From Thermomicrobiales bacterium (GTDB lineage Bacteria; Chloroflexota; Chloroflexia; Thermomicrobiales; UBA6265): a stretch of DNA of 63,586 nt. The notes beneath the pieces were generated by a model. That model did no database searches and was not told where the DNA came from. It was given only the letters and a program-made list of their open reading frames with translations. Each line of letters begins with the position of its first letter. Positions within the stretch are counted from its first letter, which is position 1. A program made the position numbers and the translations under genes. The stretch lies in the NCBI GenBank assembly GCA_038246475.1, contig JBBRVX010000002.1, positions 1-63,586 of the forward strand, in the 5' to 3' direction. Shown here piece after piece: positions 1,615-35,277 of the stretch.

Positions 1615-3146
1615 GATGCGCTCGAGAGCAATGAATGCTCCTCTCCGCTGGCCAGGGCGATCACTCGCTCGGGCGTCGCCGCCGTGCGGGGCAAGTCCGC
1701 GACCAGCCGCCCCTCACGCATGACCAGCACCCGATCGCTCATGCCCAACACCTCGGGCAGATCTGACGAGATCAGCAGGATGCCGGCGCCGCCGGCCGTC
1801 AGTCTGTTCATCTCCTCATACACCTCGACTTTGGCCCCGATGTCGATGCCACGGGTCGGCTCATCGAAGATCAGGAGGCGCGGGGCGGCGCTGAGCCACT
1901 TGCCCAGCACCACTTTCTGCTGATTGCCGCCAGAGAGATTGCGCACCCGGAACTCGAGGCTCGGGGTGCGGATGCGCAGATCGCGCACGAAGCGCCTAGC
2001 GATGAGGGCTCGCGCCCGCTGGCGAATGATGCCGAAGCGCGAGTAGGTTCCCAGCGTCGCCAGCGACAGGTTGACCTTGACGGAGAGAGGCAGCACCAAG
2101 CCCTGCTGCTTGCGATCCTCGGGCAGCAAAGCGATGCCCGCGGCCATTGCCGCCGCTGGCGAGTTGATCGCGACCGGCCGGCCATCGATGACGATGCGGC
2201 CGGCGTCTTTGGCATCGGCCCCGACCATCAGCCGTGCCGTTTCAGACCGCCCCGCGCCCACCAGCCCCGCCATGCCTACGATCTCGCCAGCCCGCACGCT
2301 GAAGGAGACATCCGCAACGGCGCCCCGCCGCGTCAACCCCTCCACCCGGACGACCTCGTCGCCAGGAAGAATGTCGATGCGGGGAAACTGCTGTGCGACG
2401 CCACGGCCAACCATCATGCGGATCAGATCGGTAATCGGTGTCGTCCTGGCGGCGACGGTATCGACCGTGCGGCCATCCCGCAGTACCGTGACCCGGTCGG
2501 CAATGACCGGCAACTCTTCCAACCGGTGCGAGATGTAGAGGACGGAAACGCCTGTCGAGCGCAGCTCGCGCAGGATGCGGAACAACTCGCCAATCTCCCC
2601 CTGCGTTAAAGAGGAGGTTGGCTCGTCCAGGATCAGGAGCTTCGACTGCCAGGAGAGGGCACGGGCGATTTCGGCCATCTGTTTCTGAGCCGTGCTCAAC
2701 CCGCGCACGATGGCGCGGGCATCGAGATCAATCCCCAACCGGCGCAAGAGCGCGCCCGCGTCCCGGTAGAGCGCCGGCCAGTTGATCACCCCTGGCGCCA
2801 GCGACGGCTCCCGGCCTAGATAGATGTTGCGGCCCACATCGAGGTTCGGCGCCAGGCTGAGCTCCTGATGAACCATGGCGATACCGAGGCGTTGCGCGGC
2901 GACCGGAGAGTCGATTGTGATGGGCGCGCCTTGCACCGTCAGCATGCCGGAGTCGGGTTGGGTCACCCCGAAGATGATCTTCATCAAGGTGCTCTTGCCG
3001 GCGCCGTTCTCCCCGATGACGGCGTGGATTTCACCAGGCAGCACCTCAAGATCGACGTGCTGCAGGGCGCGCACGCCGGGGTAGGTCTTGGACAGGTTGG
3101 CGACCCGCAGCGTCGGAGTCGGCACTAGTGCGGCGCCGTCCGTCAT
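1611..3146 (-). CDS. Sugar ABC transporter ATP-binding protein, duplicated NBD (RbsA-like)
   Basis: Walker A GENGAGKSTL, signature LSTAQKQM, Walker B LILDEPTSSL. Second half has GLVGAGRSE, LSGGNQQKV and LIFDEPTRGID. Confidence 0.92.
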   Translation of the reverse strand: MTDGAALVPTPTLRVANLSKTYPGVRALQHVDLEVLPGEIHAVIGENGAGKSTLMKIIFGVTQPDSGMLTVQGAPITIDSPVAAQRLGIAMVHQELSLAPNLDVGRNIYLGREPSLAPGVINWPALYRDAGALLRRLGIDLDARAIVRGLSTAQKQMAEIARALSWQSKLLILDEPTSSLTQGEIGELFRILRELRSTGVSVLYISHRLEELPVIADRVTVLRDGRTVDTVAARTTPITDLIRMMVGRGVAQQFPRIDILPGDEVVRVEGLTRRGAVADVSFSVRAGEIVGMAGLVGAGRSETARLMVGADAKDAGRIVIDGRPVAINSPAAAMAAGIALLPEDRKQQGLVLPLSVKVNLSLATLGTYSRFGIIRQRARALIARRFVRDLRIRTPSLEFRVRNLSGGNQQKVVLGKWLSAAPRLLIFDEPTRGIDIGAKVEVYEEMNRLTAGGAGILLISSDLPEVLGMSDRVLVMREGRLVADLPRTAATPERVIALASGEEHSLLSSAS

Positions 3147-3579
3147 CGACCCCCGCCTCGTCCATGGCCATCGTGAGTCACGCGCACATGGCAGTGCGCT
3201 GCACGTTTGACACGATCTAACAGGGCAGCACTATACCTGATGGACGCTGGGCGTGTGTGACGAAATCGGGCGCCCCACGGCCAACGTGGCCGCCAGGCGC
3301 AGCACCAGCATGATCCCTTCGTGCCCACCTTCCCGTCTCCTCAAGGACCGCCGTGTCCGAGAAAATCACCCGTCCGGGCGAGAGAATTCGGTCGCGCCTG
3401 CACCAAATGACCCTACCAAGCGTGAGCCAGACCGGGTAGAATTAGGGGTTGTCGCCGCCTTGCATCCCGCCCAATCGCGGTTATGGAACCGGCCCGGCGA
3501 CGTGCCCTGATGACCGGTCTGACAAACCTATTCCAACTGGCACGGTAACGCCGCGCTGGTCTGGAAGCTGGAAAGATAT

Positions 3580-6222: not shown

Positions 6223-6320
6223 GCCAGCCCAGTCAGGGTTGCAACGAGGTTTGAAGCCGCAGCCCCCTGGACGCATCAGAATACTCTTGATGCAGTGCTG
6301 TGGACGTGATGCATAGAGGG

Positions 6321-6349
6321 GAGGCCGCCGGGAGAATCCCGGCGGCCTC
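6321..6349. terminator. GC-rich hairpin between convergent lon and MFS genes (likely bidirectional terminator)
   Basis: GAGGCCGCCGGGA-gaa-TCCCGGCGGCCTC forms a perfect 13-bp stem, followed by gttccgttc (weak T tract). Confidence 0.5.
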
Positions 6350-6375
6350 GTTCCGTTCACGACGTACCCGAACCC

Positions 6376-7611
6376 CTATCCCCCGATCCCCCTTCCCCCT
6401 CCGCCATGCGGGCCAAGCAATGTCCACCAGATCCCGCTCGCGGCAACCAGGCCAATTGCCGCGAAAATCAACCAGGGCAGCGCCGGCACGCCGAGGCGTC
6501 CGCCAAGATCGTAGAGCAGCCCTCCCGCAAAGTTGCCCATGCCCCCACCGAAGGCGACCGCCAGCCCGGCCACGCCGAAGTACGAGCCAAGCGCAACGGG
6601 ATTCGCCATTCTCGCCACCACGGTCTGCTCGCTGGGCCGCACCAGCACGACCCCGAGGGAATAGACCAGGACCGCGACCAGGAGCGCGCCCGTATTCCAC
6701 GAAATCCCAATCAGCACCAGTCCGGCGACCGTGGTCAGCACGCCGATGACCAGCGAGCGAGGCGCCCCAATGCGCCGTTCGGCCAGTCGTGGCACTGGAT
6801 AGCCGAGCACGACCGCCACGGCCGAATTGACCGCGTAGACCCAGGCGACCGCGCTGGGGTTTCCGGCAATGGTCACCGCCACCAGGGGAAGCGTGATCGA
6901 AAACTGCGCCGCCATGAACTGCTGGCCGCTGGAAAAGCTGAGATAGGTCAGGAACGGTCGATCGTGGAAGGCGAGATGGAGGCCTTTGAAGGTGCCCCCC
7001 TTCTCCGCCACTCGTACCGCCGGAAGCCAGACGACAATCATGACCAGCAGGAGCAGGTAGCAGAAGGCGCTCGTGATGGCCACGTAGCGAAAGTCGAAGC
7101 CAAGCAGCAGGGCCCCCAGTTGCGTCCCGACAGTGATGCCCAACCCCCCGACCACACCGGTCTTGGCATAGTAGCTCGGCCTCTCCTGCTCCGTGGTGAG
7201 CGCGGCCACGGCGGCAGCGCGCGGCGACTCGAAGAGGGCGCCGCCGATGGCGGAGACGATCGCTGTCGCCATCAGCAGCGGATACGTCGTCGCGAGCGCC
7301 ATGGCGCCAAAGCCAAATGCGCGCACCAACATGCCGATCACGATGAGCGGCTTGGCCCCAAAGCGATCGGCGAGTACGCCGCTCAAGGGCGTCAGTCCCT
7401 GCTGCATGAACTGCCGGATGGCCAGCACCAGGCCGATCGAGGCGGCGGTCCAGCCGAGGCCGTCGACGTAGTGGACTGATATCATGGGAATGACCAGAAA
7501 GAAGCCGCCCCAGGCAAAGAACGTGGAAACGAGCAGCACCGTGAGACCGCGCCGGTTGGCGGCAGGCGACAGTTGCCGGCTTTCCAGCGCCAGGCCAGTT
7601 TCCTCGCTCAC
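6376..7611 (-). CDS. MFS transporter
   Basis: 411-aa ORF with about 12 hydrophobic segments and an MFS-like loop motif (GVLADRFGAKPL). Confidence 0.85.
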   Translation of the reverse strand: MSEETGLALESRQLSPAANRRGLTVLLVSTFFAWGGFFLVIPMISVHYVDGLGWTAASIGLVLAIRQFMQQGLTPLSGVLADRFGAKPLIVIGMLVRAFGFGAMALATTYPLLMATAIVSAIGGALFESPRAAAVAALTTEQERPSYYAKTGVVGGLGITVGTQLGALLLGFDFRYVAITSAFCYLLLLVMIVVWLPAVRVAEKGGTFKGLHLAFHDRPFLTYLSFSSGQQFMAAQFSITLPLVAVTIAGNPSAVAWVYAVNSAVAVVLGYPVPRLAERRIGAPRSLVIGVLTTVAGLVLIGISWNTGALLVAVLVYSLGVVLVRPSEQTVVARMANPVALGSYFGVAGLAVAFGGGMGNFAGGLLYDLGGRLGVPALPWLIFAAIGLVAASGIWWTLLGPHGGGGRGIGG

Positions 7612-7779
7612 ATTCGTCCCCGGTCGGCGCTCACACCGCTCGTTGCCTGGCTACCTAGGTGGTAAGTGATCCCTGGAGGATGCTTCAGCACCTTCGCGGC
7701 TGGAGGGCTGATGCCTGCATCCGTGCAGCCCGCGGCACGGCAAACGGCGCCAATGATCCAGAACGCTGTGACCACCCAT

Positions 7780-8049
7780 TCAGGTGGCAAACCTCCATCG
7801 AGGCGAGCCGCCCGACGCCCTGGCCAGGGCCACGAAGATCACCACAAGCGCGCTCATCAGCAACGCGGGGCCGGCGCGCCGCCTCCACCGCGACTCATCA
7901 GTGGAGAAGTCGCCGGTTGCGGACCGAATCGCCATGCCGAGACCCTCCGCGGTCCACCCGGCGAAGGGTTCCCGCGCATCGCCGGAGGTGACGACGATGT
8001 CGCCGAAAGGCGTTGCCCGGGCGTGGTCAGGCTGCCACCCCATCCGCAT
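7780..8049 (-). CDS. Small hypothetical protein with one C-terminal TM segment
   Basis: ATG at 8049 lies 5 nt after the stop of the upstream M50-like gene. High GC3 codon pattern. Sequence MRMGWQPDHARATPFGDIVV...SRWRRRAGPALLMSALVVIFVALA. No recognisable domain. Confidence 0.35.
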   Translation of the reverse strand: MRMGWQPDHARATPFGDIVVTSGDAREPFAGWTAEGLGMAIRSATGDFSTDESRWRRRAGPALLMSALVVIFVALARASGGSPRWRFAT

Positions 8050-8054
8050 GGCGC

Positions 8055-9113
8055 CTAACCCGCGGCGGGGCTGTTGCGCACGGATGTCGAAGAAGATGAA
8101 GCAACCCCGGTGGGAGTCCACCCTTCCACCGTTTCCATCGCCAGCCGTAACATCATCGTGAGACGATCGGCATCGAGCGTCGCGGGATCGCGCCCGATGG
8201 CGCGCTGCTCGGGCGGCATGCCGTCGACCCGCAGCGCGCCTGAAAGCTCGACGCCTCCGCTATCAGCCGCGACGGCAATGACAGATCGCTGCAACGGCCG
8301 AAGGCCCCAGGAGAGGACCAGGGCCGTTCCCGTTGTTCCCTGTTGGATCGAGGCTTCGACCGGGGTGGGCCAACCGCTGGCGACGCGAGTCGCCACATCG
8401 CGCAACGTGCGCTCCGTTGGCGACGCGTTATCTGGAACAAGCGCCGTCGATCGTCTTGAGGTGGCGACGCGTGCTGGGCCCTGAACGTCTCCGGTCAGCG
8501 CGGCAATGCGATTCCGGGCTCTGGGGCTCTTCCAGGCCCAGAAGAGGGCGGCCAAAACTGCCAAGTGGATGACCAGAATCGTCACGCTCAACGTCGGTAC
8601 GCTGAAGTCGTACATCTGCATCCAGTCGCCGTTAAGCCCGGTGATGAAGTCGAGCAATGGATAGACGACCAGGGCATTGAGTAACGAAATCCAGGTGAAC
8701 TGGATCAACAGCTCGTTGATGGCGGCGCGGAAAGGCGGGCGCTTCAGGAAGACGAGCGCCAGTGCCAGAATCGCCAGCAGGATATTCACCGCCACCCCAG
8801 CCGAGGCGATGACAATCTGCTGCGCGGCGGTGAACTCGCTCGGGTCGAAGCCGACATAGCCGGCAAACCCATAGAAGCCCCATTCGAGGACGTGCCCGCC
8901 GAAGAGCCAGATCATCGTTGCGTGACCGAGCTCATGCAGGGCCACGGAGATGGGAACCAGGACAAAGAACGCCGCCTGATTGACGAGCATCCGATCCTGC
9001 CGGGTGAAGTTGAGGTCAAACGTCTGGCGGAAGCTGCGAATAAGCTGATACACGACTCGTGCGCCGAGCACCACGTAGAAAAGGCTGATTAGCCCAAAGG
9101 CTCCTAATGGCAT
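8055..9113 (-). CDS. Membrane metallopeptidase, M50/site-2-protease-like, with a soluble C-terminal domain
   Basis: HExxH inside a TM helix (VALHELGHATMIWLFGGH), several further TM segments, then a roughly 150-aa non-membrane tail. Confidence 0.7.
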   Translation of the reverse strand: MPLGAFGLISLFYVVLGARVVYQLIRSFRQTFDLNFTRQDRMLVNQAAFFVLVPISVALHELGHATMIWLFGGHVLEWGFYGFAGYVGFDPSEFTAAQQIVIASAGVAVNILLAILALALVFLKRPPFRAAINELLIQFTWISLLNALVVYPLLDFITGLNGDWMQMYDFSVPTLSVTILVIHLAVLAALFWAWKSPRARNRIAALTGDVQGPARVATSRRSTALVPDNASPTERTLRDVATRVASGWPTPVEASIQQGTTGTALVLSWGLRPLQRSVIAVAADSGGVELSGALRVDGMPPEQRAIGRDPATLDADRLTMMLRLAMETVEGWTPTGVASSSSTSVRNSPAAG

Positions 9114-9211
9114 GGGGAATCTCCGGAGTTAGCGATCAACATCGACAGGAAGTCTGGCACAGGCCGCGCCTTCGCGCCGTCGCCGGTAGTGCCGTAAGGA
9201 ATGGAGCGGCA

Positions 9212-10552
9212 TCATTCGACTGATGCGACCGCATCGCTCCGCTCGACGCGGGTTAACCTGCTGCCAATCACAATAGCGATGATCGCCACGATCGCGCCAC
9301 CCGTGGCCACCGCCATCGGAGAGCCCCAGGCTTCACTGATCAGGCCGGCCAATGCAGCGCCGATCGGCGTCGATCCAGCAAAAACGGTCAGGTAGATGCT
9401 CATCACCCGGCCACGAAGATGATCCGGCGTGTTTGTCTGCACCGTCGTGTTTGCCTGGGTCATTGTCGTGCTCATGGAGAACCCCGTTCCGGCCATCAAC
9501 ACCATCGCCGCGAGGGCAGGAGCGCCGAATCCGGCCGCGGCGCCGAGAGCGATCTCGAAGAGGCCGAAGAGGAGCGCGGTGGCGAGCAGGCGCTGCGAAG
9601 AAGGCCGCCGCCCCGTGAACGCCAGGGTCAGCGCGCCGGTCAGCGACCCGATCCCCAGCGAAGACATGAGCAATCCGAAACCGCTGGCGCCGATGTCGAG
9701 GGCGTCCCGCGCCAGCAACGGCGCCCAGACTCCAAAGTTCATCCCGAAAATGGCCATCAAGCCAGCCAGGATGATCGGTAGGCGTACCTCGGGAGTGCGG
9801 CGCACGTAGGCGAGACCTTCACGCAGACGCTCCACCGCCGACCCGGCATTGCTGCCTTTCCTGGGGCGCCCCTGGGTGCGCATCACCGCGAGTCCCGCGA
9901 TCACCGGGAGATAGGAGAGCGAGTTCACGACAAAACAAATCTCCGGGCCAAATCTGGCCAGAATCAACCCCGCGAGCGCCGGCCCCACGACCCGCGTGGT
10001 GTTGAACAGGGCCGAATTCAGCGCGATGCCATTCATCAAATTGTCTTTGCCAACCAGGTCGACCACAAAGGATTGCCGCGCGGGCATGTCAATCGCGGAA
10101 ACAATGCCGAGCGCCATTGCCGCCGCGTAGATCTGCCAGAGCTCGATCGCTCCCCTGCTGACCTGAAACGCGAGGAGACCGGTGATGAAGGCGGCGGCGA
10201 TCTGGGTAAAGAGCAGGAGCTGGCGCTTCGGCAAGCGATCGACCAGCACTCCTGCGGGCAGGCCAAGGAGCAGCGTGGGCCCGAATTGAAAGACGCCGAT
10301 GAGACCGAGCGCCGCCGGCGAATCGGTCAGGGTCAGCACCAGCCAGGCTTGCGCCAGGCTCTGCATCCATGTGCCGGTCAGAGAAAAGAGCTGGCTGAAA
10401 AAGAAGACGCGATAATCCCGATGCCCGAGGGAGCGCAATCCCTCGGGCAGTCGTTCCTTCGGGCGATTGGGCACGGAGGGCGCCAGGAGTTCAGGTTGGT
10501 CAGTTCCCGGCGACGTGCTCCCTTCGGCAGCCGGTACGCGCATCTCGTGCAT
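9212..10552 (-). CDS. MFS transporter (EntS/MFS_3-like); start trimmed to ATG 10552
   Basis: Polytopic ORF (DYRVFFFSQLFSLTGTWMQ...). The tracked 506-aa version would overlap the divergent add gene, so I prefer the internal Met (MHEMRVP). Confidence 0.85.
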   Translation of the reverse strand: MHEMRVPAAEGSTSPGTDQPELLAPSVPNRPKERLPEGLRSLGHRDYRVFFFSQLFSLTGTWMQSLAQAWLVLTLTDSPAALGLIGVFQFGPTLLLGLPAGVLVDRLPKRQLLLFTQIAAAFITGLLAFQVSRGAIELWQIYAAAMALGIVSAIDMPARQSFVVDLVGKDNLMNGIALNSALFNTTRVVGPALAGLILARFGPEICFVVNSLSYLPVIAGLAVMRTQGRPRKGSNAGSAVERLREGLAYVRRTPEVRLPIILAGLMAIFGMNFGVWAPLLARDALDIGASGFGLLMSSLGIGSLTGALTLAFTGRRPSSQRLLATALLFGLFEIALGAAAGFGAPALAAMVLMAGTGFSMSTTMTQANTTVQTNTPDHLRGRVMSIYLTVFAGSTPIGAALAGLISEAWGSPMAVATGGAIVAIIAIVIGSRLTRVERSDAVASVE

Positions 10553-26685: not shown

Positions 26686-27155
26686 ATGCCAGAACCCATG
26701 ACGCCCCGAATGTCGAAGGCGCCCGGTCGTCGCGGGCAACGCCCCCCATCGGGCTCTTCGAGATGGTGCTGGAAGTGGCCGACCTCGCCGCTTCCGAACG
26801 GTTCTACCATGAGGTCATCGGATTGCCGGTGGCCGACCGCTGGGACGACGAGCGCCCGGCCGTCTGGCTGGCCCTCGGCCGCGAGGCCTTCCTCGGTCTC
26901 TGGCCGCCCGAAACTGGCGGCAACGTGGCGATTCATGTAGGCCGCGGTGGGAGCCATGTCCACTTCGCGATGCGCCTGCCGCTGGGCACGCTCGACGCGA
27001 CTCAAGCTCGACTGACAGCCCTCGGCTACAACGTCGAGGAGCGCGACTTCGGACGCGGCAACCGGGCCATCTATCTCGACGATCCGGACGGCAACGTGGT
27101 TGAACTCACTGAGCGGACGACGCAGTGGGACGGCAGGCCGGTAGGTGACGGGTGA
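26682..27155 (+). CDS. VOC family protein
   Basis: ATGA overlap with the previous gene. FEMVLEVADLAASERFYHEVIGLPV...HVHFAMRL...IYLDDPDGNVVEL. Confidence 0.8.
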   Translation: MNARTHDAPNVEGARSSRATPPIGLFEMVLEVADLAASERFYHEVIGLPVADRWDDERPAVWLALGREAFLGLWPPETGGNVAIHVGRGGSHVHFAMRLPLGTLDATQARLTALGYNVEERDFGRGNRAIYLDDPDGNVVELTERTTQWDGRPVGDG

Positions 27156-27200
27156 CGGATGATGGGTGATGGGTGATGGGTGATGGGTGATGGGTGATGG
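27144..27200. repeat. Tandem heptamer array (GGTGAYG)n, with five perfect GGGTGAT copies at 27164-27198
   Basis: ggtgacg ggtgacg gatgat gggtgat x5 gg. The array starts within the last codons of the VOC gene and overlaps its stop codon. Confidence 0.9.
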
Positions 27201-28179: not shown

Positions 28180-28605
28180 CTAGCGGTTCAGCGCCAGGAC
28201 GATGCTCACCCCGAGTATCGCCAGCACCAGGAGGGAGAGCAGCGCGTAGCGCCGGTCGCCCATCCGCCAGAAACTGATGCCCACGACCACGACCGTGGCG
28301 ACCGGCGTGGCCATGAACCAGAGAATCGCCAGGTCGATGATCCCCGAGGCGTGCCCGGCCCGAACCGCCGCCAGCACATCGATGAAGCGATCGGCCTCAT
28401 GACCGAGCGGTTCGCTCTTGATCAGCGCGACGACCACGCCAACGGCGAGCAACGCCGCGCCGAGGCGGAATCCCCAGGTAAAGATGAGGAATGCCGCATC
28501 GTACAGCGGAGCGAGCCGCTCCGTTCGCAGATCCAGCTCGGCCATCTCCAGCTCCGAGCCTTGCACGGCCATGCGCTCGCCTTCGCCCCTCATGGCGTCG
28601 CTCAT
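28180..28605 (-). CDS. Small membrane protein, DUF1634-like
   Basis: 141 aa with about 3 TM segments and a 4-nt overlap with the upstream TauE gene. This pairing is common for DUF1634 (recollection, not searched). Confidence 0.65.
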   Translation of the reverse strand: MSDAMRGEGERMAVQGSELEMAELDLRTERLAPLYDAAFLIFTWGFRLGAALLAVGVVVALIKSEPLGHEADRFIDVLAAVRAGHASGIIDLAILWFMATPVATVVVVGISFWRMGDRRYALLSLLVLAILGVSIVLALNR

Positions 28606-29537
28606 GTCTGGCCCGGCACTTTCACGCCCGCCGCCCGCAGTAGGAGCGACACCCCGAGGTAGAGCAGGATCAACGCAAAGATCAGCGCCAGCCGTTGCGC
28701 CTTGATCCTCCTGGTCAGGCGCGAGCCGATCTGGCCGCCCAGGAAGACCCCAACGATCGAGGGCACGATGAGGGTGGGGTCGAGCTTGCCATGGGCGTAG
28801 TAGACAAAGGCGGTGGCGACCGAGGTGATGCCGATCATGAATGATGAGGTGCCGACCGCCGCCTTGACCGGAACGCGCATCAGCAGATTCATGGCAGGCA
28901 CCATCACCACCCCGCCACCGACCCCCAGCATGCCGGAAATCACCCCTGCTCCGGCGCCGACGCCCATGCCCGCGGCCACCCGCGTCGGGATATAGCCGAC
29001 TTCCTTGCGGATCGCGGGGTCGTGAAACGCCGCGCCCAGCAGGAGCGGATCGGGGGCACCGGGAGGTGGGGTCGTCACCTGCAGTTCCCGCTTGGTGACC
29101 ATCGAGACGGCGGCATACACGAGTACCCCGCCAAAGACGACATAAATCACGCGGGGGTCGGCCAAAACCCCGTAGAGTGCGCCGGCGATTGCTCCCACGG
29201 CCATCGAGATCTGCAACAGCATGGCCAGCCGCGGGTTCGTGAACCGGCTGCGCAGATGGTTCGTCGATCCGACCACCGAGTTGGTGACGACGACGATGGC
29301 GCTCGCGCCCACCGCCAACTTGGGATCGATCCCGAAAAAGAGGGTCAGGATCGGAACCAGAAAGACCCCCCCACCCAGGCCCAGCATCGACCCCAGGATG
29401 GCGGCCCCCGCCGCCACGAGGCCGATCTCCAGCGAAAAGACGATATCCAACCCGGTCCTTCCCCAGACGCCTTCCGACTCCGCGCCAGTGCGACCCGCCT
29501 TATAGCACCGCCGCACGTACCCCGCCAGAGGTCGCAT
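28602..29537 (-). CDS. TauE/SafE family (sulfite/anion exporter-like) membrane protein
   Basis: Duplicated GLGGGVFLVPIL and MLGVGGGVVMVPAM motifs. Start uncertain (the tracked ORF extends to 29588). Confidence 0.8.
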   Translation of the reverse strand: MRPLAGYVRRCYKAGRTGAESEGVWGRTGLDIVFSLEIGLVAAGAAILGSMLGLGGGVFLVPILTLFFGIDPKLAVGASAIVVVTNSVVGSTNHLRSRFTNPRLAMLLQISMAVGAIAGALYGVLADPRVIYVVFGGVLVYAAVSMVTKRELQVTTPPPGAPDPLLLGAAFHDPAIRKEVGYIPTRVAAGMGVGAGAGVISGMLGVGGGVVMVPAMNLLMRVPVKAAVGTSSFMIGITSVATAFVYYAHGKLDPTLIVPSIVGVFLGGQIGSRLTRRIKAQRLALIFALILLYLGVSLLLRAAGVKVPGQT

Positions 29538-29629
29538 GCCGATGTGCCGAAACCGTCGGCTGGCATTCTCCTGCCACGGGCGCCACACTCAAGCCGGCGG
29601 GCCGATCGGCTCGCGTATCGAGAGCTCAA

Positions 29630-29790
29630 GAGCGTTATGCGGTGGGAGACTCCAGATGGCGAGATGCGCCGGACGGGGTCACGAGGAAAGCCGGTGTGAA
29701 TCCGGCGCTGTCCCGCAACTGTAACGCCGGCAGGCGCGTCTCGGCCGGCGAAGTCAGAACACTCACCTCACCGCGTCCAGCGCCCTTCGC
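29630..29790 (+). promoter_or_regulatory. Cobalamin (B12) riboswitch
   Basis: Core GAGGAAAGCCGGTGTGAATCCGGCGCTGTCCCGCAACTGTAAC (29683-29725) fits the conserved GGAA.CCGGTG.GAATCCGG.GCTG.CCCGC.ACTGTAA core. A GCCGGC...GCCGGC hairpin spans 29726-29749. The B12-box-like GAAGTCAGAACACTCACC lies at 29750-29767, 45 nt upstream of ATG 29813. Confidence 0.8.
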
Positions 29791-29812
29791 GTGAAAGGGA
29801 AAGGACACCACT

Positions 29813-30913
29813 ATGTCGCGCGCGTCGCGAGCGATTCGTCTCGCCACTGGCACTGTACGCTGCGGAGCAGCCGTCTCCTCGCTCATGCTTGTTTTGGTCT
29901 TCTGCCTGGCGATCCAGACGCCACCGGGGGTCGTCGCCCAGGCGGGAACCCCGCGGCCGGGGATTTCGGAGCGAGTCGCTGGAACGCCTCTGGACGCCGC
30001 CTCGGCCTGGCTCCGTTCCCAACAGGACGCTTCAGGAGGGTTCCCCGGCTTTTCTGGCGATCTTGACCCGGGTACGACCACCGATGCCGTGATGGCGTTG
30101 CATGCCGCCCAAGGTAGCGATCCCGAAGCCGGCGCGGCCCTCGACGCCGCGATGGCGTATCTGGAACGGGAGGGCGCTCCCTACGCGGCGACCGGCGCGG
30201 GGCAAGCCGCCAAACTGGCCCTGGCGGCGGTAGCGGGCGGGAGTGATCCCCGTGGTTTTGCTGGTATCGATCTGATCGCGGCCATGAAGGCGCCGCCGAC
30301 CGCGACGGTCGAGAATCCCATCGCCGGCATCTATGGCGACGATCTCTACGATCATGCCCTCGTCCTCCTCGCCTTCGCCGCCGCGGGCGAGCCGGTTGCC
30401 GATGCCGCCATCGTACCGTTGCGCGCGACCCAGGGGGACGATGGCGGTTGGGCGTTCGATGGCTCGACCGAGCCCGGCGCGGCCGACTCCAACACCACCG
30501 CGTTGGTGATCCAGGCTTTGGTGGCCAATGGCCACGGCGACGACGAGATGGTCTCGCGAGCCATCACAAGTCTGCCGTCGTTCCTCGCTCCAGATACTGG
30601 CGGATTTGCCTATGGACATGAGGAAGCGCTCGTCGCGGATGCCAACTCGACGGCGCTGGTGATGCAGGCGCTGATCGCCGCGGGAGAGAATCCGGCCTCC
30701 CCGGAGTGGGGCAACGCTTCGCTGGCTCTCGCCAGCTTCCAGACCGAGGGGGGCGGGCTCCGCTACATGGCGAGCGACGACGATCCGAACCTTTTGGCGA
30801 CGTTGCAGGCCATCCCGGCGCTGGCGGGGCTGCCTCTCCCGGTAGCGGTCGGTTGCGCCGCGGGTGAAGCTGCGGAGACCGATGGCTGCATTCCGCTTGA
30901 GCTCGCGGCATGA
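29813..30913 (+). CDS. Secreted alpha/alpha-toroid repeat protein (prenyltransferase/terpene-cyclase-like fold; candidate transcobalamin alpha-domain analog)
   Basis: Signal peptide (...SLMLVLVFCLAIQTPPGVVAQA). Six helical-hairpin repeats, four of which carry an xGG(F/W/L) turn: DASGGFPG...TTTDAVMALHAAQG; GDDGGWAF...NTTALVIQALVANG; PDTGGFAY...NSTALVMQALIAAG; TEGGGLRY...LLATLQAIPALAG. Confidence 0.75.
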   Translation: MSRASRAIRLATGTVRCGAAVSSLMLVLVFCLAIQTPPGVVAQAGTPRPGISERVAGTPLDAASAWLRSQQDASGGFPGFSGDLDPGTTTDAVMALHAAQGSDPEAGAALDAAMAYLEREGAPYAATGAGQAAKLALAAVAGGSDPRGFAGIDLIAAMKAPPTATVENPIAGIYGDDLYDHALVLLAFAAAGEPVADAAIVPLRATQGDDGGWAFDGSTEPGAADSNTTALVIQALVANGHGDDEMVSRAITSLPSFLAPDTGGFAYGHEEALVADANSTALVMQALIAAGENPASPEWGNASLALASFQTEGGGLRYMASDDDPNLLATLQAIPALAGLPLPVAVGCAAGEAAETDGCIPLELAA

Positions 30914-30959
30914 ACGAGGCGCACGGAATTCGGGATGATCTCGCGTCTGGGCGACGAGG

Positions 30960-31646
30960 ATGATCTGGGATGCCGTTCGCCTCTGGCTCCTCCTTTCGCT
31001 GGCAGTCCTGCTGGCTGCCCTCCTCCTGCACCCAGCGCCGACCCTGGCGGACGGCGAGCTTCATCACGCGGGGCTGATCGTGCGCGACGGCGAAGGTCGG
31101 ATCACCTATGCCTGGGTGCCGTTTCCGGAAGAGGAGATCGACGGCGTCCAGCTTCTGGAGCGTAGCGGCATTCCGGTGGTCACCGTCAACTTTGGCGCTC
31201 TCGGCGAAGGTGTTTGCTCTATCGCCGGGCAAGGCTGCGGGGTCACCGAATGCCGTCGCAACGTTTGTCAGGCCTCCGCCGCCGATGCGCCGTACTGGCA
31301 GTATTTCCAGCAAAACGACGACGATCCTGGAATCTGGACCTGGCAGGTGCTCGGCCCCAGCGCCGCGAAGGTCGAGGATGGCGAGGTCTTCGGCTGGAGC
31401 TGGACGGCGGATGAACCGGCCCTGCCCGGCATTGGGGCCGTGGAGATCGCGCGGTTGGCCGGCGCCGGCGACGGAACCGGGAGCGATCCCGCGGTGCGGA
31501 CCCTGTTGCCGGAAGGGGTTGCGGCGGTCAGCATGGCGCGGCCACCCGATGGCCATACGACCACAATCGCGGCGGGCATCCTCGTGCTGATTGCGGGCGT
31601 CTCCTTCACGCTTGTCGGCCGGCTCCGCGCCGCGGCGGCCGCATGA
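30960..31646 (+). CDS. Signal-peptide protein with a DUF4430-like domain and a C-terminal TM anchor
   Basis: MIWDAVRLWLLLSLAVLLAALLLHPAPTLA signal. Core ...VNFGALGEGVCSIAGQGCG...APYWQYFQQ...WTWQVLGPSAAKVEDGEVFGWSW. C-terminal TTTIAAGILVLIAGVSFTLVGRLR anchor. Confidence 0.7.
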   Translation: MIWDAVRLWLLLSLAVLLAALLLHPAPTLADGELHHAGLIVRDGEGRITYAWVPFPEEEIDGVQLLERSGIPVVTVNFGALGEGVCSIAGQGCGVTECRRNVCQASAADAPYWQYFQQNDDDPGIWTWQVLGPSAAKVEDGEVFGWSWTADEPALPGIGAVEIARLAGAGDGTGSDPAVRTLLPEGVAAVSMARPPDGHTTTIAAGILVLIAGVSFTLVGRLRAAAAA

Positions 31647-32683
31647 TGGCCGCGCGCGTCCGTCCGCTCGATCCCCGGGCCTGGATGATCTGGGCTGCAG
31701 CAGCCAGCGTGCCTCCCTTGGTGGGGCGAAATCCCTGGCCGCTGGCGGCCACCCTCCTGGCGGTGCTGGGGGTCTGGGGCGTTTGGGGCGCTGGCGCCCC
31801 GGGGGTGAGATGGCGGCCGCTGCTCCGGCTGGCGATCGTCTTTGGCGTGGTGAGCGTGCTGTTCAACCTGCTTACATCGCACACGGGCGACATTGTCCTT
31901 GGCGGGCTCCCCGCGCATTGGCCGATCGTCGGGGGACCGTTGACCCTCAACGCGCTGATCTATGGACTGCTGGGAGCGGTCGCCATTCTCTCGCTCGTCG
32001 GCGTCAGCGCAACGCTCGGCGCAACGCTCGACTGGAGTCTGGCCATCCGCCTCCTGCCAGAGCGGATGGCGCCGCTGGCCGTGGCCGGCTCGGTGGCCTG
32101 GTCATACCTGCCACGCACCACCACCGCGCTGGCCGAAATTCGCGAAGCCCAGATGGCGAGAGGCTACCGCCCGCGCGGCCTGCGCGATGCGGCGCCGCTG
32201 CTGATGCCGTTGCTGGCGGGGGGGCTGGAGCGATCGCTGATGACGGCCGAGGCGCTGGAAGCGCGGGCCTTTGGCGCGCCGCTCTCACCGGAGAGCGCGG
32301 CACGGCCATGGCAGATCGCCTCGCTGCTGTGCGGGTCGGTGGCCGGGCTGACCGGCGCCTTCTGTCTCGCGCTGGGGTTGGTGGCCGCGGCCGGAGCGCT
32401 CTGCGGGGTGGCCGCGTTGGCGGTCGCCGCCGGGCTCATCAGCCCGCGCCGGCCAGGAGCGATCCTGCGCCGCACCCGCTACCGGGAGCCGATCTGGGAG
32501 CGCCCGGAATGGATCGTCAGCGCTGTTTCTGGCGGCGTCCTCCTGGTCCAGATCGCGATCCTCATGCTCGATCCCGCCGCATTCCGCTATGAGCCCTATC
32601 CCGTGCTGGGGGCGCCCGCGATCAACCTGCCGCTGCTCGTGGCGCTCGGATTTCTCGTTGTTCCGGCGGCGGTGCGGCCATGA
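31643..32683 (+). CDS. ecfT: ECF transporter transmembrane (T) component, with an unusual C-terminal extension
   Basis: Coupling-helix motifs IREAQMARGYRPRG and TAEALEARAFGAP. 346 aa, with about 90 extra residues (about 4 hydrophobic helices) after the second motif. ATGA overlap with the previous gene. Confidence 0.82.
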   Translation: MMAARVRPLDPRAWMIWAAAASVPPLVGRNPWPLAATLLAVLGVWGVWGAGAPGVRWRPLLRLAIVFGVVSVLFNLLTSHTGDIVLGGLPAHWPIVGGPLTLNALIYGLLGAVAILSLVGVSATLGATLDWSLAIRLLPERMAPLAVAGSVAWSYLPRTTTALAEIREAQMARGYRPRGLRDAAPLLMPLLAGGLERSLMTAEALEARAFGAPLSPESAARPWQIASLLCGSVAGLTGAFCLALGLVAAAGALCGVAALAVAAGLISPRRPGAILRRTRYREPIWERPEWIVSAVSGGVLLVQIAILMLDPAAFRYEPYPVLGAPAINLPLLVALGFLVVPAAVRP

Positions 32684-34404
32684 TTGACGAGGCGTCTGTT
32701 CAGCACGAGCGAGCGCGTCTCACATCGTCACTCGCGTCGAGCGAATCGGCCATCGCGACCGTTGCCGGCCTGACCTACTCCTACCCCGACGCTGGCGTGC
32801 CCGCTTTGCACGATCTCACCTGGTCGGTGTCCGCCGGCGAGTTCGTGACCGTTACGGGCCCATCGGGGAGCGGAAAATCGACGCTCTTGCGTTGCCTCAA
32901 CGGACTGACGCCCCATTTCAGCGGCGGGACGTTCGATGGCGTCGTCACCGTCGCGGGGCACGACACGCGGCACTACAGCCCGCGGGCGCTTGCGCGCCTG
33001 ACCGGATTCGTCTTTCAGGACCCCGAGGCCCAATTCGTCACCTCGCGGGTCGATGATGAGCTGGCCTTCGGCATGGAACAGCTCGGTGTGCCGCCGCTGA
33101 CCATGCGCAAGCGGGTCGAAGAGGTGCTCGATCTGCTCGGCATCGCGGCGCTGCGCGATCGCGAAATTGCCACCCTTTCGGGCGGCGAGCGGCAGCGCGT
33201 GGCCGTGGCGGCGGCACTGGCGCTGCAACCTGCAATCCTGGCGCTCGACGAGCCAACCAGCCAGCTTGATCCCTGGGGCGCCGAGGAAGTCCTGGCCGCC
33301 TTGACCCGGCTGAATGAAGATTTGGGCCTGACCGTGGTGCTCGCCGAGCATCGCCTGGAGCGAGTGGTCAGCCATACCGACCGGCTCACGCTGCTCGCGC
33401 GCGGCGGCACGATCGCGCTCGATGGCCCGCCGCGGGAGGTGCTGCAGCAGATGGATGCCGGAGATTTGCCGGCGCTGCTGGCGCTCGGCCGCCGTCTCGA
33501 TTGGCGTCCGCTGCCCCTCTCGATCAAGGAAGGACGCGCGGAGCAACGGCGCGACGCGGCGCGCGGGCGCGTCCCCAGGCCCGCTCCACCGGACCCCACT
33601 TCGCCAGGCGGGACGCCAGTCGCGCGCCTGCAGCGAGTGAGCGCAGGCTGGGAGCGCCGCGCCGTGTTGCGCGAGATTGATCTCGAGGTGCGGCCGGGCG
33701 AGCTGCTGGCGCTCATGGGGCGGAACGGCTCGGGCAAGACCACGCTCTTGCGGCTCGTGGCCGGGCTGCACCGGCCAACGTCGGGGCAGGTGCTGCTGGA
33801 AGGCCAGGACACGGCGCAGATGCACCCCGCGGATATTGCCCAGACGGTGGGCTATCTGCCGCAGAATCCCTCATCGCTCTTCTTTGCCGAAACGCTCGGC
33901 GCGGAGTTGGCCTTCACGCGCAAGCACCAGAAGCGCGGCACGAACGATCCGCTCGAAACCCTCGCTCAGGTTGGGCTCGCGCACGCGATCGAGCGCAACC
34001 CTCGCGATCTCAGCGGCGGCGAACGAGAGCGCGCCGCGCTGGCCGCAGTGCTGGTTGGCGCGCCGCGGGTTCTCCTCCTCGATGAGCCGACGCGGGGCAT
34101 GGACGCCGCCCGCAAACGGGAGCTGGCGGCGATTCTGGAGCGTCTGCGCCGGGACGGCGCAGCGATCCTGCTCGCGACCCATGATGTCGAGCTCGTTGCC
34201 GAGACGGCAACCAGGGTCGTGCTGCTTGGCGACGGCCGCATCGTGGCCGACGGCGGGCCGCGGGCGGTCCTTTCCGGCTCCCTTACCTTCGCCACGGCGA
34301 TCAACAAGCTCTACGGCGGCGGTTTTCTCACGCCAGGCGATGTGCTCGCCGGGATGGGAATCGTGCAGGAGAGGATTGTGGAATTAGTCGGCTCGAACGG
34401 GTGA
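32680..34404 (+). CDS. Fused duplicated ECF/CbiO-type ATPase (EcfA-EcfA')
   Basis: Two complete NBDs: GPSGSGKST / LSGGERQRV / LALDEPTSQLD and GRNGSGKTT / LSGGERERA / LLLDEPTRGMD. ATGA overlap with the T component. Confidence 0.9.
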   Translation: MIDEASVQHERARLTSSLASSESAIATVAGLTYSYPDAGVPALHDLTWSVSAGEFVTVTGPSGSGKSTLLRCLNGLTPHFSGGTFDGVVTVAGHDTRHYSPRALARLTGFVFQDPEAQFVTSRVDDELAFGMEQLGVPPLTMRKRVEEVLDLLGIAALRDREIATLSGGERQRVAVAAALALQPAILALDEPTSQLDPWGAEEVLAALTRLNEDLGLTVVLAEHRLERVVSHTDRLTLLARGGTIALDGPPREVLQQMDAGDLPALLALGRRLDWRPLPLSIKEGRAEQRRDAARGRVPRPAPPDPTSPGGTPVARLQRVSAGWERRAVLREIDLEVRPGELLALMGRNGSGKTTLLRLVAGLHRPTSGQVLLEGQDTAQMHPADIAQTVGYLPQNPSSLFFAETLGAELAFTRKHQKRGTNDPLETLAQVGLAHAIERNPRDLSGGERERAALAAVLVGAPRVLLLDEPTRGMDAARKRELAAILERLRRDGAAILLATHDVELVAETATRVVLLGDGRIVADGGPRAVLSGSLTFATAINKLYGGGFLTPGDVLAGMGIVQERIVELVGSNG

Positions 34405-34415
34405 CAGGAATCGGT

Positions 34416-35135
34416 TCAAAGCATTGGTCCGCCTGGCCGGCGGGAGAGTTCCGCAAGATGTTCCCAATCATGTTCGAGCAGACGGCGCAAGGCCTGCCGC
34501 AGTGTCTTCGGACCGGACGGAAGCTGGCGCACGGCGGCGCGTTGTTCAGGAGTGGCTGCCTCAATGATGGTCACGAACCTGGCCGTGCTCACCTCGAACG
34601 CTGCTTGCACGGGGAGTTCCTCACGTTCATACGCGCTGGCGATACGACCTACGCCAGGGGCGCCGCCAAGTGCGGATGCCAGGAAAGCGCCTCGTGCCGC
34701 CAGGACGTGGCGGAGCATTTCCCGCGCTGGGCGCCCACCGGCGGCCGGCGTTTCGGCGAGCTGCTCCTCCGTTCTGGCGGCGGCCCAGGCGCCAAGCTCG
34801 CGGCTCGTTCCGCCAATGCGACGAAGATACAGTTCGACATCCTCGGAGGTCAGCGGCGCCCAGTCGGGGCCGAAAAGGATGTACGGCGAGCCATTCCCCA
34901 GGAACTCGCCCTCGGTAATGTGCTCCGCAATCCGCGTCTCGATCGGCGAGTCTGGATCGAAGGGCTCTCCCTGCCGGATCAAGAAACGCTGGAATGCGCG
35001 AATGGCGTCCGGGGTCGCTGCCAATGCCTCCGCCGTCGTTGCGCCGACCGCAATGCATCCGGCCAGGTCGAGGACATGCACCATCGTCTTGCGCTGGCGT
35101 GGACCGGACTCGAGATACAGATCGAATATCGGCAT
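34416..35135 (-). CDS. DinB-family protein with a small N-terminal HicB-like domain
   Basis: Start at ATG 35135 (MPIFDLYLESGPRQRKTMVHVLDLAGC...). C-terminal four-helix region ends LRRLLEHDWEHLAEL. Confidence 0.7.
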   Translation of the reverse strand: MPIFDLYLESGPRQRKTMVHVLDLAGCIAVGATTAEALAATPDAIRAFQRFLIRQGEPFDPDSPIETRIAEHITEGEFLGNGSPYILFGPDWAPLTSEDVELYLRRIGGTSRELGAWAAARTEEQLAETPAAGGRPAREMLRHVLAARGAFLASALGGAPGVGRIASAYEREELPVQAAFEVSTARFVTIIEAATPEQRAAVRQLPSGPKTLRQALRRLLEHDWEHLAELSRRPGGPML

Positions 35136-35277
35136 CTGCGCATTCCCTGTCGTCCTGCGTCTACGTTGCGCGGGCCTGTAAGAGGATACTCGGCAAGCGC
35201 CCGCCGATCGCGTCACAAGGGTGAGGAGAAACGGTCATGCGAGCCAGTTCGCTTTGGATTACGTGGAGGCGCCCAGG

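Follow-up and report, generated by a model that had tools for sequence, protein, structure and literature searches.

The four-gene operon described here probably encodes an importer of corrinoids (vitamin B12 or cobinamide) of the Cbr-type ECF family, whose S subunit is likely to be encoded elsewhere in the genome. It lies in the window, the whole analysed stretch of 63.6 kb of Thermomicrobiales DNA, and includes the genes of a toroid protein (g1), a beta-domain protein (g2), a T component (g3), and a fused ATPase (g4). The original prediction described a two-chain transcobalamin analog feeding an ECF module. Its riboswitch, energizer, and toroid were found, as was the lack of an S gene in the operon, whereas the specific relationship to DUF4430 and transcobalamin, and the novelty, were not upheld.

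The aptamer of a cobalamin riboswitch (RF00174) is located at positions 29628–29784 of the forward strand. The match covers the full model (1–189) with 37.7 bits (E = 5.7e-6), the gathering score being 31.5, and includes the riboswitch core recognized earlier at 29683–29767. The spacing of 45 nt to the genes proposed then was counted from this core; the ATG of g1 is 28 nt past the end of the aptamer match. There is no terminator-like site between the aptamer and g1, and the control is therefore presumably translational. The four ORFs are co-directional and coupled by ATGA overlaps at 31643–31646 and 32680–32683, exactly as had been read from the sequence. B12 riboswitches are also known to regulate cobalt transporters, which was counted against the corrinoid reading.

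The gene pair is linked to the riboswitch in relatives as well: a cobalamin riboswitch is kept in 19 of the 20 related Chloroflexota loci with an SCO2322-family gene, and cobalamin-clan riboswitches occupy orthologous positions in loci L001–L015 and L017–L019. The four-gene order was found in all 14 reference-genome loci, each with a same-strand cobalamin-clan riboswitch upstream; thus, the arrangement is not a matter of chance. The identity of the four genes between the window and these loci is 56–82% for most of them and 47–68% for the most divergent, L011. The L017 locus has the capture pair on one strand and the ECF genes on the other, each under a cobalamin riboswitch of its own; in L016, the pair is present without ECF genes and without a riboswitch. 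A cobalamin riboswitch was detected inside the 6-kb flank of three of the 13 sampled Firmicutes-type loci, and none was found at the homologous loci of L. curvatus and L. plantarum.

The g1 gene (29813–30913, forward strand) encodes a secreted, SCO2321-like alpha/alpha-toroid protein of 366 aa. The predicted signal peptide and alpha6/alpha6-toroid fold can be recognized in a hydrophobic N-terminal segment (residues 10–44), in the xGG turns (SGGF, DGGW, TGGF, and GGGL), in toroid matches, and in the AlphaFold model (pLDDT 87.3, pTM 0.81), which has twelve helices across residues 59–337. The family matches include weak ones to the N and C domains of SQHop_cyclase and 80 bits to SCO2321_fam (cut-off 300). 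In the Foldseek search, terpene cyclases and prenyltransferases (E = 1e-7 to 1e-5) come ahead of transcobalamin (2v3n, rank 41, E = 2.1e-5), and the g1 profile matched no transcobalamin, intrinsic factor, or haptocorrin chain. The claim that g1 is specifically transcobalamin-like is not supported; it is a generic toroid, nearer to terpene cyclases than to transcobalamin, and this was counted against a corrinoid ligand. It is also non-catalytic: the cyclase motif DVDDTA reads DANSTA at the aligned position, so that the catalytic DxDD is replaced. When compared by hhalign with the toroid encoded in the cbr operon of L. plantarum, g1 gave E = 1.8e-4 over 155 columns. We propose g1 as the "alpha" half of a corrinoid-capturing pair.

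The g2 gene (30960–31646, forward strand; 228 aa) belongs to the SCO2322 family (1,812 representative clusters), whose Pfam model, PF28005, is carried by its distant homologues; the NCBIfam match to this family is 26 against a cut-off of 85. The earlier description of its architecture was accurate. A signal peptide is followed by a beta-rich domain of about 120 aa with the YWQYF...WTWQ...DGEVFGWSW motifs and a Cys-rich insert, then by a linker and a C-terminal transmembrane helix with basic residues behind it. The residues C86, C93, C98, C103, and H36 are invariant; they could mean metal binding, another point counted against corrinoids. Across the family, the insert cysteines differ in number and spacing, as seen in the L014 protein and the family consensus. 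Only one of the five AlphaFold models of g2 is confident (78 vs. about 58), which was also held against the corrinoid reading; in this model (pLDDT 78.4), the elements follow in the order b-b-a-b-b-insert-b-b-b.

The designation of g2 as DUF4430-like needs qualification. At E <= 1, PF14478 (DUF4430) matched neither g2 nor any of 86 diverse members of its family, and a Foldseek search with the g2 model returned nothing significant and no transcobalamin; both results weighed against the corrinoid reading. What stands is a remote profile–profile resemblance: hhalign aligned g2 with DUF4430 profiles in register at P = 7.7e-5 and 4.4e-4, which is comparable to the resemblance of the transcobalamin beta domain to DUF4430 in the same test (control, P = 1.4e-3). 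Judged from these profiles, the homology of g2 and DUF4430 is plausible, although remote and unproven. In the operon, g2 fills the DUF4430 slot, and it is proposed to be the "beta" half of the pair.

The g1 and g2 homologues are adjacent at every locus, and natural single-chain fusions exist. P0311 and P0317 join toroid, beta domain, and anchor in the order of transcobalamin, and reverse fusions, from g2 to toroid, are represented by P0370 and a 952-aa protein of L014. Adjacency and fusion support a joint function of the two proteins as a unit, possibly a heterodimer. The g2 gene is also connected with EcfT: six of the 15 Thermomicrobiales-type loci (L003, L004, L005, L007, L008, and L009) have both in one continuous ORF, and at most other loci the two ORFs overlap by ATGA or GTGA. 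Database proteins with the same fusion are P0241, P0432, P0440, and P0442. The g2–EcfT fusions have arisen in the Thermomicrobiales-type lineage only.

The identification of the last two genes as EcfT and a fused EcfA-A' was correct. The g3 gene (31643–32683, forward strand; 346 aa) encodes an EcfT/CbiQ-type T component matching PF02361 (CbiQ/EcfT) with 41.4 bits at residues 9–211. It weakly matches EcfT of solved ECF complexes, 6fnp being the best, and its TIGR02454 (CbiQ) score of 29.9 is far under the cut-off of 111.8. At its C-terminus, the protein is extended by about 135 aa that include three hydrophobic segments. This extension is no substitute for an S component, since it is also found beside a separate S gene (L014, L015, and L019). 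The g4 gene (32680–34404, forward strand; 574 aa) encodes the fused EcfA-EcfA' ATPase with two ABC_tran domains (PF00005, 212 bits). It exceeds both ECF_ATPase equivalog cut-offs (TIGR04520, 348.9 bits vs. 315; TIGR04521, 332.9 bits vs. 330).

The operon contains no S component gene. None was found when ten multi-pass membrane proteins were scanned with Pfam, nor when a custom S-component HMM was run against six-frame ORFs of at least 100 aa over the whole window, and this absence from 63.6 kb was counted against the corrinoid reading. The sister-lineage S HMM gives about 1e-110 or better on controls. All 15 Thermomicrobiales-type loci, the window counted, are without an S gene in the window or within 7–9 kb. 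The statement that there is no S component is thus right for this operon, but not for the system: in other Chloroflexota (Anaerolineae, Thermoflexales), a CbrT-like S gene is part of the operon. These S components match Firmicutes-type and Lactobacillus ones at E = 1e-12 to 1e-22, and that of the L. plantarum operon matches L. delbrueckii CbrT (6fnp_A) at E = 1.8e-9. CbrT is an experimentally proven S component for cobalamin and cobinamide (PMC5997447). The lack of an S gene characterises the Thermomicrobiales lineage rather than this type of importer.

The corrinoid importer may work as follows. When B12 is plentiful, the 5' cobalamin riboswitch would turn the operon off. The secreted g1 and the membrane-anchored g2 would form a two-chain extracytoplasmic device for substrate capture, in which they would be the counterparts of the transcobalamin alpha and beta domains. 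Because g2 is tethered beside EcfT and fused to it in many relatives, the captured ligand would be delivered at the ECF module, presumably powered by the fused EcfA-A' ATPase. In Firmicutes and other Chloroflexota, the CbrT-like S component of the same operon would perform the actual translocation. In Thermomicrobiales, it is most likely encoded at another genomic location, an arrangement known from group II ECF systems.

It is less likely that the S component is dispensable. An importer in which Thermomicrobiales lost S, and g2, g1, and the extra EcfT helices together bind and translocate the corrinoid, would agree with the negative S search in the 15 loci despite the sensitivity of the HMM, with the four remaining genes being intact, conserved, and still riboswitch-controlled, and with the restriction of g2–EcfT fusions to this lineage. 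We nevertheless regard it as unlikely. A single transmembrane helix of g2 cannot provide a binding pocket, the EcfT extension occurs in S-containing operons as well and hence replaces nothing, and L017 demonstrates that the operon can divide into separately regulated units. S genes are routinely encoded elsewhere in group II systems, and every structurally characterised ECF transporter requires S for translocation (PMC5997447). Little credence can be given to a CbiQO-type importer of cobalt or another metal, in which the cysteines and histidine of g2 would bind Co2+ and the riboswitch would reflect the use of cobalt in B12 synthesis. The named matches of g3 and g4 are indeed CbiQ/CbiO-type models, the invariant residues suit a metal, a CobW GTPase gene adjoins the L014 operon, and cobalt transporters are known under such control. 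However, CbiM, CbiN, and other metal S components were not found, the sister-lineage S component is CbrT-like, and the CbiQ score of g3 is low. The cysteines, variable in number and spacing and placed in an extracytoplasmic insert, are typical of disulfides, and an ion needs no 300-aa toroid partner.

Import of another tetrapyrrole, such as heme, or of some other bulky hydrophobic compound bound in the toroid is similarly improbable. It draws on the impaired heme accumulation after deletion of lsa1836-1840 in L. sakei (10.1101/864751), on the missing riboswitch of the L. curvatus and L. plantarum loci, and on the isoprenoids that toroid folds commonly bind. For this clade, however, the riboswitch at 19 of 20 Chloroflexota loci points to a substrate related to B12, and hemin is no competitor for CbrT (PMC5997447). 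Very improbable is the explanation that g1 and g2 are non-transport envelope proteins, e.g., terpenoid or cell-wall enzymes, merely co-transcribed with an ECF energizer. The cyclase and prenyltransferase matches of g1 and the solitary pair of L016 would fit it, but g1 has lost the catalytic motif, export or anchoring places both proteins outside the membrane, the ECF linkage holds across phyla, and g2 is physically fused to EcfT at several loci.

Among named families, g1 and g2 are matched best by Streptomyces SCO2321 and SCO2322 (NF053823, NF040672; PF28005), an adjacent gene pair going by their locus numbers, although both scores are far under the NCBIfam cut-offs. These families have no described function, and a literature search for them returned nothing. 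In an Anaerolineae relative, a BtuF/FhuD-type Peripla_BP_2 gene is added to the same riboswitch-controlled operon. In Firmicutes, the order toroid, beta-domain protein (true DUF4430), EcfT, and EcfA-A' is widespread, with a CbrT-like S component. Among 41 Firmicutes-type loci of 6 kb or more, DUF4430 is present in all 41, EcfT in 36, the toroid and EcfA-A' in 34 each, and S in 29, in the same order as in the window. ECF-CbrT of L. delbrueckii (6fnp) is an ECF-type importer of cobalamin and cobinamide, as proposed here; however, it is a group II system relying on a shared ECF module, and extracytoplasmic accessory proteins are absent from its solved complex (PMC5997447), whereas the module in the window is dedicated, riboswitch-controlled, and accompanied by two accessory proteins, without a CbrT gene.

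The two-chain concept had been considered uncharacterised, but the idea is not new: Verplaetse et al. (bioRxiv 10.1101/864751) had already interpreted the homologous operon lsa1836-1840 of L. sakei as an ECF system whose scavenger proteins resemble transcobalamin alpha and beta. HHpred assigned the transcobalamin beta domain to Lsa1839 and the alpha domain to Lsa1840, the deletion impaired tetrapyrrole (heme) uptake, and in the published model, as in ours, an alpha/beta pair scavenges a tetrapyrrole for the ECF module (10.1101/864751). That this characterised homologue is linked to heme and not to B12 was counted against the corrinoid reading. Both systems include an exported toroid (Lsa1840-like), an exported beta-domain protein (Lsa1839-like), EcfT, and a fused EcfA-A', and the order toroid, beta, T, A-A' is common to the window, the L. 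curvatus locus, and most metagenome loci. The Lactobacillus toroid is detectably homologous to g1, and the Lactobacillus S components to those of sister Chloroflexota operons. Unlike the L. sakei system, the window has no S gene. Its EcfT is considerably lengthened at the C-terminus, and in some loci this subunit is joined to the beta protein. The beta protein itself is not a recognisable DUF4430 lipoprotein but one of the SCO2322 type, which contains a Cys-rich insert and is anchored in the membrane by its C-terminus. The operon in the window is controlled by a cobalamin riboswitch, while the L. sakei relatives L020 and L022 lack one.

Transcobalamin, intrinsic factor, and haptocorrin (PF01122 + PF14478) combine, like g1 and g2, an alpha/alpha toroid with a small beta domain, and the bacterial fusions P0311 and P0317 repeat their alpha-to-beta order. 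The strand and helix order of g2 and its YW... and DG(D/E)... motifs are in register with DUF4430 and the transcobalamin beta domain. In contrast, neither g1 with PF01122 nor g2 with PF14478 gives a significant sequence match; in Foldseek, many other toroids precede transcobalamin for g1, and it is not retrieved for g2. The window also encodes the two parts as independent chains, and one of these has a membrane anchor. Intrinsic factor, whose proteolytic alpha and beta fragments reassemble around cobalamin, sets a precedent for such a binder made of two chains.

The operon under study is headed by a cobalamin riboswitch. In a covariance-model search, RF00174 was the sole Rfam family above threshold in the whole window; its aptamer (29628–29784, forward strand) is a full-length match with 37.7 bits against the curated gathering score of 31.5, which bears out the cobalamin riboswitch of the original prediction. 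The first gene, g1 (29813–30913), begins 28 nt past the aptamer end and is followed by g2 (30960–31646), g3 (31643–32683), and g4 (32680–34404). All four ORFs are co-directional on the forward strand, with ATGA overlaps at the g2/g3 and g3/g4 junctions, and the sequence observations behind the prediction were confirmed as a whole. A promoter/terminator scan gave no result better than chance, and no clear expression platform was found in the minimum-free-energy fold of the leader (z = −0.8). Since the interval between the aptamer and g1 carries no terminator-like site, control by the riboswitch is probably translational. The G+C content of the window is 64%, and the closest named relatives of its proteins belong to Thermomicrobiales and Chloroflexia MAGs.

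Relatives of g2 were found in 14 Chloroflexota reference-genome loci (L001–L014). The order g1–g2–g3–g4 is kept in all 14, and in each of them a riboswitch of the cobalamin clan precedes the operon on the strand of its genes (14/14). Distant homologues gave five further contexts: L015 (Anaerolineae), L016, L017, L018 (divergent Thermomicrobiales), and L019. The cobalamin riboswitch is also present in L015, L017 (two copies), L018, and L019, so that the predicted linkage of the gene pair to the riboswitch in related genomes holds in 19 of the 20 Chloroflexota loci. The sole locus in which no cobalamin riboswitch was found, L016, contains a toroid gene (632 aa) and an SCO2322 gene of the g2 type (398 aa) at 7041–10197 with no adjacent ECF genes; such a pair can therefore exist alone. 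The system is split in L017 (4942–12820): the capture pair is encoded on one strand and the ECF genes on the other, and both sets have a cobalamin riboswitch of their own in front. One riboswitch (66.3 bits) precedes a 119-aa gene, the toroid gene, and the SCO2322 gene; the second, on the other strand (36.5 bits), precedes the genes of CbiQ, the ATPase, and a 267-aa S-like protein.

Several features of the surroundings can be noted. Directly upstream of the window riboswitch, on the reverse strand and divergent from the operon, is a gene pair (28180–29588) encoding a TauE/SafE-family permease (PF01925, 171.8 bits) and a DUF1634 protein (PF07843). The TauE gene holds the same place in L001–L011, which may reflect either simple synteny within the lineage or a functional relationship. 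At 27144–27200, the heptamer GGTGATG is tandemly repeated 8.1 times with 94% matches; the repeat lies at or just past the 3′ end of a glyoxalase-like ORF and accounts for the repeated peptide ‘HPSPIT’ in an antisense ORF that is spurious. Downstream of the operon, a convergent gene on the reverse strand (34416–35216) encodes a protein with a weak HicB-like antitoxin match at the N terminus and a DinB_2 domain, and it is kept beside the operon in L003 and L010. In L014 (Thermoflexales, 1489–6842), a CobW GTPase gene is located ahead of the riboswitch; the first riboswitch-controlled gene encodes a protein of 376 aa that matches nothing in Pfam or NCBIfam, and the next one a surface protein of 952 aa, in which a g2-like domain is combined with a DUF11 repeat and two toroid domains. 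In L015 (5086–7133), genes of a 143-aa protein and a Peripla_BP_2 (BtuF/FhuD-type) binding protein are situated between the riboswitch and the toroid gene, and an Rrf2 regulator gene is just upstream. A classical ABC-type binding protein inside an ECF operon is unusual.

The energizing module is encoded by g3 and g4. The g3 protein is a CbiQ/EcfT protein (PF02361, residues 9–211, 41.4 bits, cut-off 25), whose closest solved relative is EcfT of the Lactobacillus ECF complexes, including ECF-CbrT (6fnp). The g4 protein is a fused double ABC ATPase scoring above both NCBIfam ECF-ATPase equivalog cut-offs (TIGR04520, 348.9 bits, cut-off 315; TIGR04521, 332.9 bits, cut-off 330). With all three models above cut-off, the earlier reading of these genes as EcfT and a fused EcfA–A′ stands. 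The C terminus of g3 carries an extra ~135 residues with three hydrophobic segments. This extension was considered as a built-in substitute for the S component, the substrate-specific membrane subunit of ECF transporters, and the idea was rejected because the long C terminus also occurs where separate S genes exist (L014, L015, L019). In the window, the gene of EcfT overlaps that of the ATPase; insertions of ~800 nt in L004 (8743–9534) and L009 (8689–9540) and of ~340 nt in L008 (8731–9066) separate the two. These insertions contain no convincing ORF and could be a mobile or repetitive element.

An S component was not found in the window operon. A batch Pfam scan of 45 window ORFs, for which the best 25 of 62 families were listed, could not exclude one, and for this reason ten multi-pass membrane proteins of the window were scanned and a custom S HMM, constructed from four Chloroflexota S proteins and two Lactobacillus ones, was run on six-frame ORFs. 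Neither an S component nor CbiM/N was detected by Pfam among the ten proteins. Tblastn and the custom S HMM gave no match in the window and 14 other Thermomicrobiales-type loci (best E = 2.6), with controls at ~1e-110 or better. The original prediction of an operon with no S component was thus upheld by Pfam, tblastn, and the custom S HMM within the window. The operons of L014, L015, L017, and L019 are accompanied by a membrane protein of 267–281 aa matching ECF S-component models, the gene of which sits between g2 and g3 in L014, L015, and L019. PF12822 scores for these three proteins are 50.1, 30.4, and 37.8 bits, respectively; the L017 protein matches PF07155 only, and weakly (E = 0.0017). 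Compared with the Lactobacillus S proteins, the Chloroflexota ones give E-values of 1e-12 to 1e-22. The S gene is absent from the operon in every Thermomicrobiales-type locus examined, while the other genes are conserved, riboswitch-controlled, and often include a g2–EcfT fusion.

The g1 protein carries a signal segment at the N terminus and matches squalene-cyclase repeats weakly, and its match to the NCBIfam family SCO2321_fam is below the cut-off (80 vs 300). The AlphaFold model is confident (pLDDT 87.3) and represents an alpha/alpha toroid of twelve helices. Foldseek returned single-domain squalene–hopene-cyclase-like proteins, MstE, prenyltransferase beta subunits, and linalool dehydratase at E = 1e-7 to 1e-5; transcobalamin (2v3n) is at rank 41 (E = 2.1e-5, TM 0.44), a likeness at the fold level only. 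PF01122, the Cobalamin_bind alpha-domain, had no match in g1 at E ≤ 1, and a faint one (E = 0.048) was found in a relative from L018. The g1-family profile matches cyclases (best E = 1.9e-8) and did not match the chains of transcobalamin, intrinsic factor, and haptocorrin at E ≤ 10. Of the suggestion that g1 corresponds to the alpha half of transcobalamin, the toroid fold is retained and the specific relationship is not, cyclases being ahead and PF01122 absent. The catalytic DxDD(TA) acid motif of class II terpene cyclases is not present in g1: the DVDDTA motif of squalene–hopene cyclase aligns with DANSTA, and the other repeat reads DSNTTA. An active terpene cyclase was rejected, since g1 is an exported protein that has lost the catalytic motif. 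The structural and profile matches, together with the replacement of DVDDTA, point to g1 as an exported, non-catalytic toroid and putative binding scaffold.

In g2, a signal peptide precedes a beta-rich domain of ~120 residues; a linker connects this domain to a C-terminal transmembrane helix, after which come arginines. Residues C86, C93, C98, C103, and H36 are invariant among 34 close homologues. The family comprises 1,812 clusters (50% identity, E ≤ 1e-3). The NCBIfam match of g2 to SCO2322_fam is below the cut-off (26.2 vs 85); PF28005 (‘SCO2322’) is precomputed on its homologues, both close ones (P0003 and P0004, 74–75% identical) and distant ones, and judging from this annotation the g2 family appears to correspond to PF28005. 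A literature search on SCO2321–SCO2325 found nothing useful.

The original prediction regarded g2 as DUF4430-like. By HMMER, PF14478 (DUF4430) had no match in g2 or 86 diverse relatives at E ≤ 1, and the g2-family profile matched no chain among PDB sequences. The best g2 model has a pLDDT of 78.4 and the other four ~58. A Foldseek search of PDB did not find transcobalamin or anything significant (best E = 0.076, unrelated folds), which is a weak negative given that the query was full-length and included the signal and anchor helices; GyrB and superantigens appeared as insignificant matches. The predicted order of elements (b-b-a-b-b, Cys-rich insert, b-b-b) and the motifs YWxY and DG(D/E)VxxWxW resemble DUF4430, and reference DUF4430 profiles were built for this reason. 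The human TCN2 beta-domain for the reference profile was verified against PDB; bona fide bacterial sources were a Lactobacillus (L.) plantarum plasmid (PF14478, 59.5 bits), L. curvatus, a Bacillus record, and 80 metagenome loci. Using hhalign, the trimmed g2-domain alignment matched a five-sequence DUF4430 profile over 69 columns (P = 7.7e-5, probability 62%), and a 28-sequence bacterial profile was matched over 88 columns in register along the domain (P = 4.4e-4). In the positive control, the bacterial DUF4430 profile aligned to genuine transcobalamin beta with P = 1.4e-3. Alignment of g2 to a two-sequence transcobalamin beta profile was uninformative (probability 1%, P = 0.04–0.05). The DUF4430-like character of g2 was thus not seen by HMMER and Foldseek and survives as a remote, in-register resemblance; remote homology is plausible, its support being equal to that of a known member in the same weak test.

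Natural fusions are informative about the arrangement of these proteins. Six of the 15 Thermomicrobiales-type loci (L003, L004, L005, L007, L008, and L009) have g2 and EcfT in one continuous ORF, and in most others the two overlap by ATGA or GTGA. The same fusion is found in several independent database proteins (P0241, P0432, P0440, and P0442). Two others, P0311 and P0317, are clean single chains with a signal peptide, toroid, short linker, g2 domain, and anchor, an order identical to the alpha-to-beta order of transcobalamin. The 952-aa L014 protein and P0370 have g2-like domains followed by toroid domains; P0370 (587 aa, metagenome) contains two tandem g2-type domains and then a toroid domain in one chain, which indicates that domain number and order are flexible in the g2 family. 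The protein P0307 (685 aa) was not accepted as a genuine fusion because it contains an internal signal-like segment. The g1–g2 and g2–EcfT fusions argue that g1 and g2 would act as one unit and that g2 would sit at the EcfT subunit.

Outside Chloroflexota, the L. plantarum plasmid pMF1298-5 was reported to carry cbrV, cbrU, and cbrT (PMC6722938). Its gene order is EcfT, fused ATPase, S component, a 350-aa protein, and a DUF4430 protein. The 350-aa protein (29455–30507 in the plasmid locus L020) is annotated as ‘fucose-binding lectin II’ and has no Pfam match; the name looks like a misannotation. The g1-family alignment gave moderate support for its relationship to g1 (hhalign E = 1.8e-4, probability 49%, 155 columns), and the motifs GGW...D(S/A)NTT and GF.Y...NANST are common to both. 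The plasmid S component matches CbrT of L. delbrueckii (6fnp_A, E = 1.8e-9), for which cobalamin and cobinamide transport was shown experimentally (PMC5997447). The L. curvatus locus encodes an LPXTG toroid protein, DUF4430, EcfT, ATPase, and S. In a set of 41 DUF4430 loci from metagenomes, each spanning 6 kb or more, the toroid is upstream in 34, EcfT is present in 36 and the ATPase in 34, and S is downstream in 29. A cobalamin riboswitch lies within the 6-kb flank in 3 of 13 sampled Firmicutes-type loci.

A corrinoid is most likely the substrate of the window system because the cobalamin riboswitch is near-universal in the clade and sister lineages possess CbrT-like S components. A cobalt importer of the CbiMNQO type is less likely: CbiM and CbiN were not found in the window, and the CbiQ equivalog score of g3 is 29.9 against a cut-off of 111.8. 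Import of heme and a non-transport role are likewise less likely than corrinoid uptake. As a working model, we adopt a two-chain transcobalamin analogue formed by g1 and g2. The original interpretation is partly supported: the two-chain picture is a reasonable mechanistic one, with a structural basis that is remote for g2 and generic for g1.

The missing S gene allows two explanations. The simplest would place the S gene elsewhere in the genome, an arrangement that follows the logic of group II ECF systems, and L017 demonstrates that the operon can be divided. Alternatively, Thermomicrobiales might dispense with the canonical S component, the predicted g1–g2 binder delivering B12 directly to EcfT. 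In this reading, which we consider unlikely, the binder would be a membrane-tethered, transcobalamin-like pair, with g2 frequently fused to EcfT, and the receiving EcfT would be one that carries extra transmembrane helices. If true, such a system would be a hybrid of binding-protein-dependent ABC importers and ECF transporters, and only in this case would interest in the operon be high. The riboswitch linkage, natural fusions, and S-gene-less lineage make the Chloroflexota version a good system for asking whether S is always required and in what way accessory binders attach to ECF modules. It also suggests what the SCO2321/SCO2322 families, which are large (more than 1,800 sequence clusters) and uncharacterised, might do, and how Chloroflexota that abound in soil might scavenge B12.

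The absence of extracytoplasmic binding proteins is, to our knowledge, a defining feature of ECF transporters. The window operon represents, in its Chloroflexota (SCO2321/SCO2322-type) form, a family of ECF operons that is widespread and has two extracytoplasmic accessory proteins; this family contradicts that rule in at least two phyla and places predicted transcobalamin-like B12 capture in bacteria. The original prediction considered such a module uncharacterised, which does not hold for the concept, since transcobalamin-like capture with ECF is already published for one heme-linked Lactobacillus system. The L. sakei operon lsa1836–1840 is the subject of a study by Verplaetse et al. (bioRxiv 10.1101/864751), who modelled a heterodimer and proposed ligand scavenging with hand-over to the S component; they showed that deletion of the operon impairs heme uptake. 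A literature search combining ‘transcobalamin-like’ with the riboswitch found nothing useful. The window order of toroid, beta-domain protein, EcfT, and fused EcfA–A′ is the same in L. curvatus and most of the 41 metagenome loci. A CbrT-like S component belongs to the Lactobacillus operon and is present in L014, L015, L017, and L019, whereas it is absent from the window operon. New in Chloroflexota are the firm B12-riboswitch linkage (19/20 loci), single-chain fusions in the domain order of transcobalamin, and a lineage whose operon no longer includes the S gene and whose beta protein is fused to EcfT.
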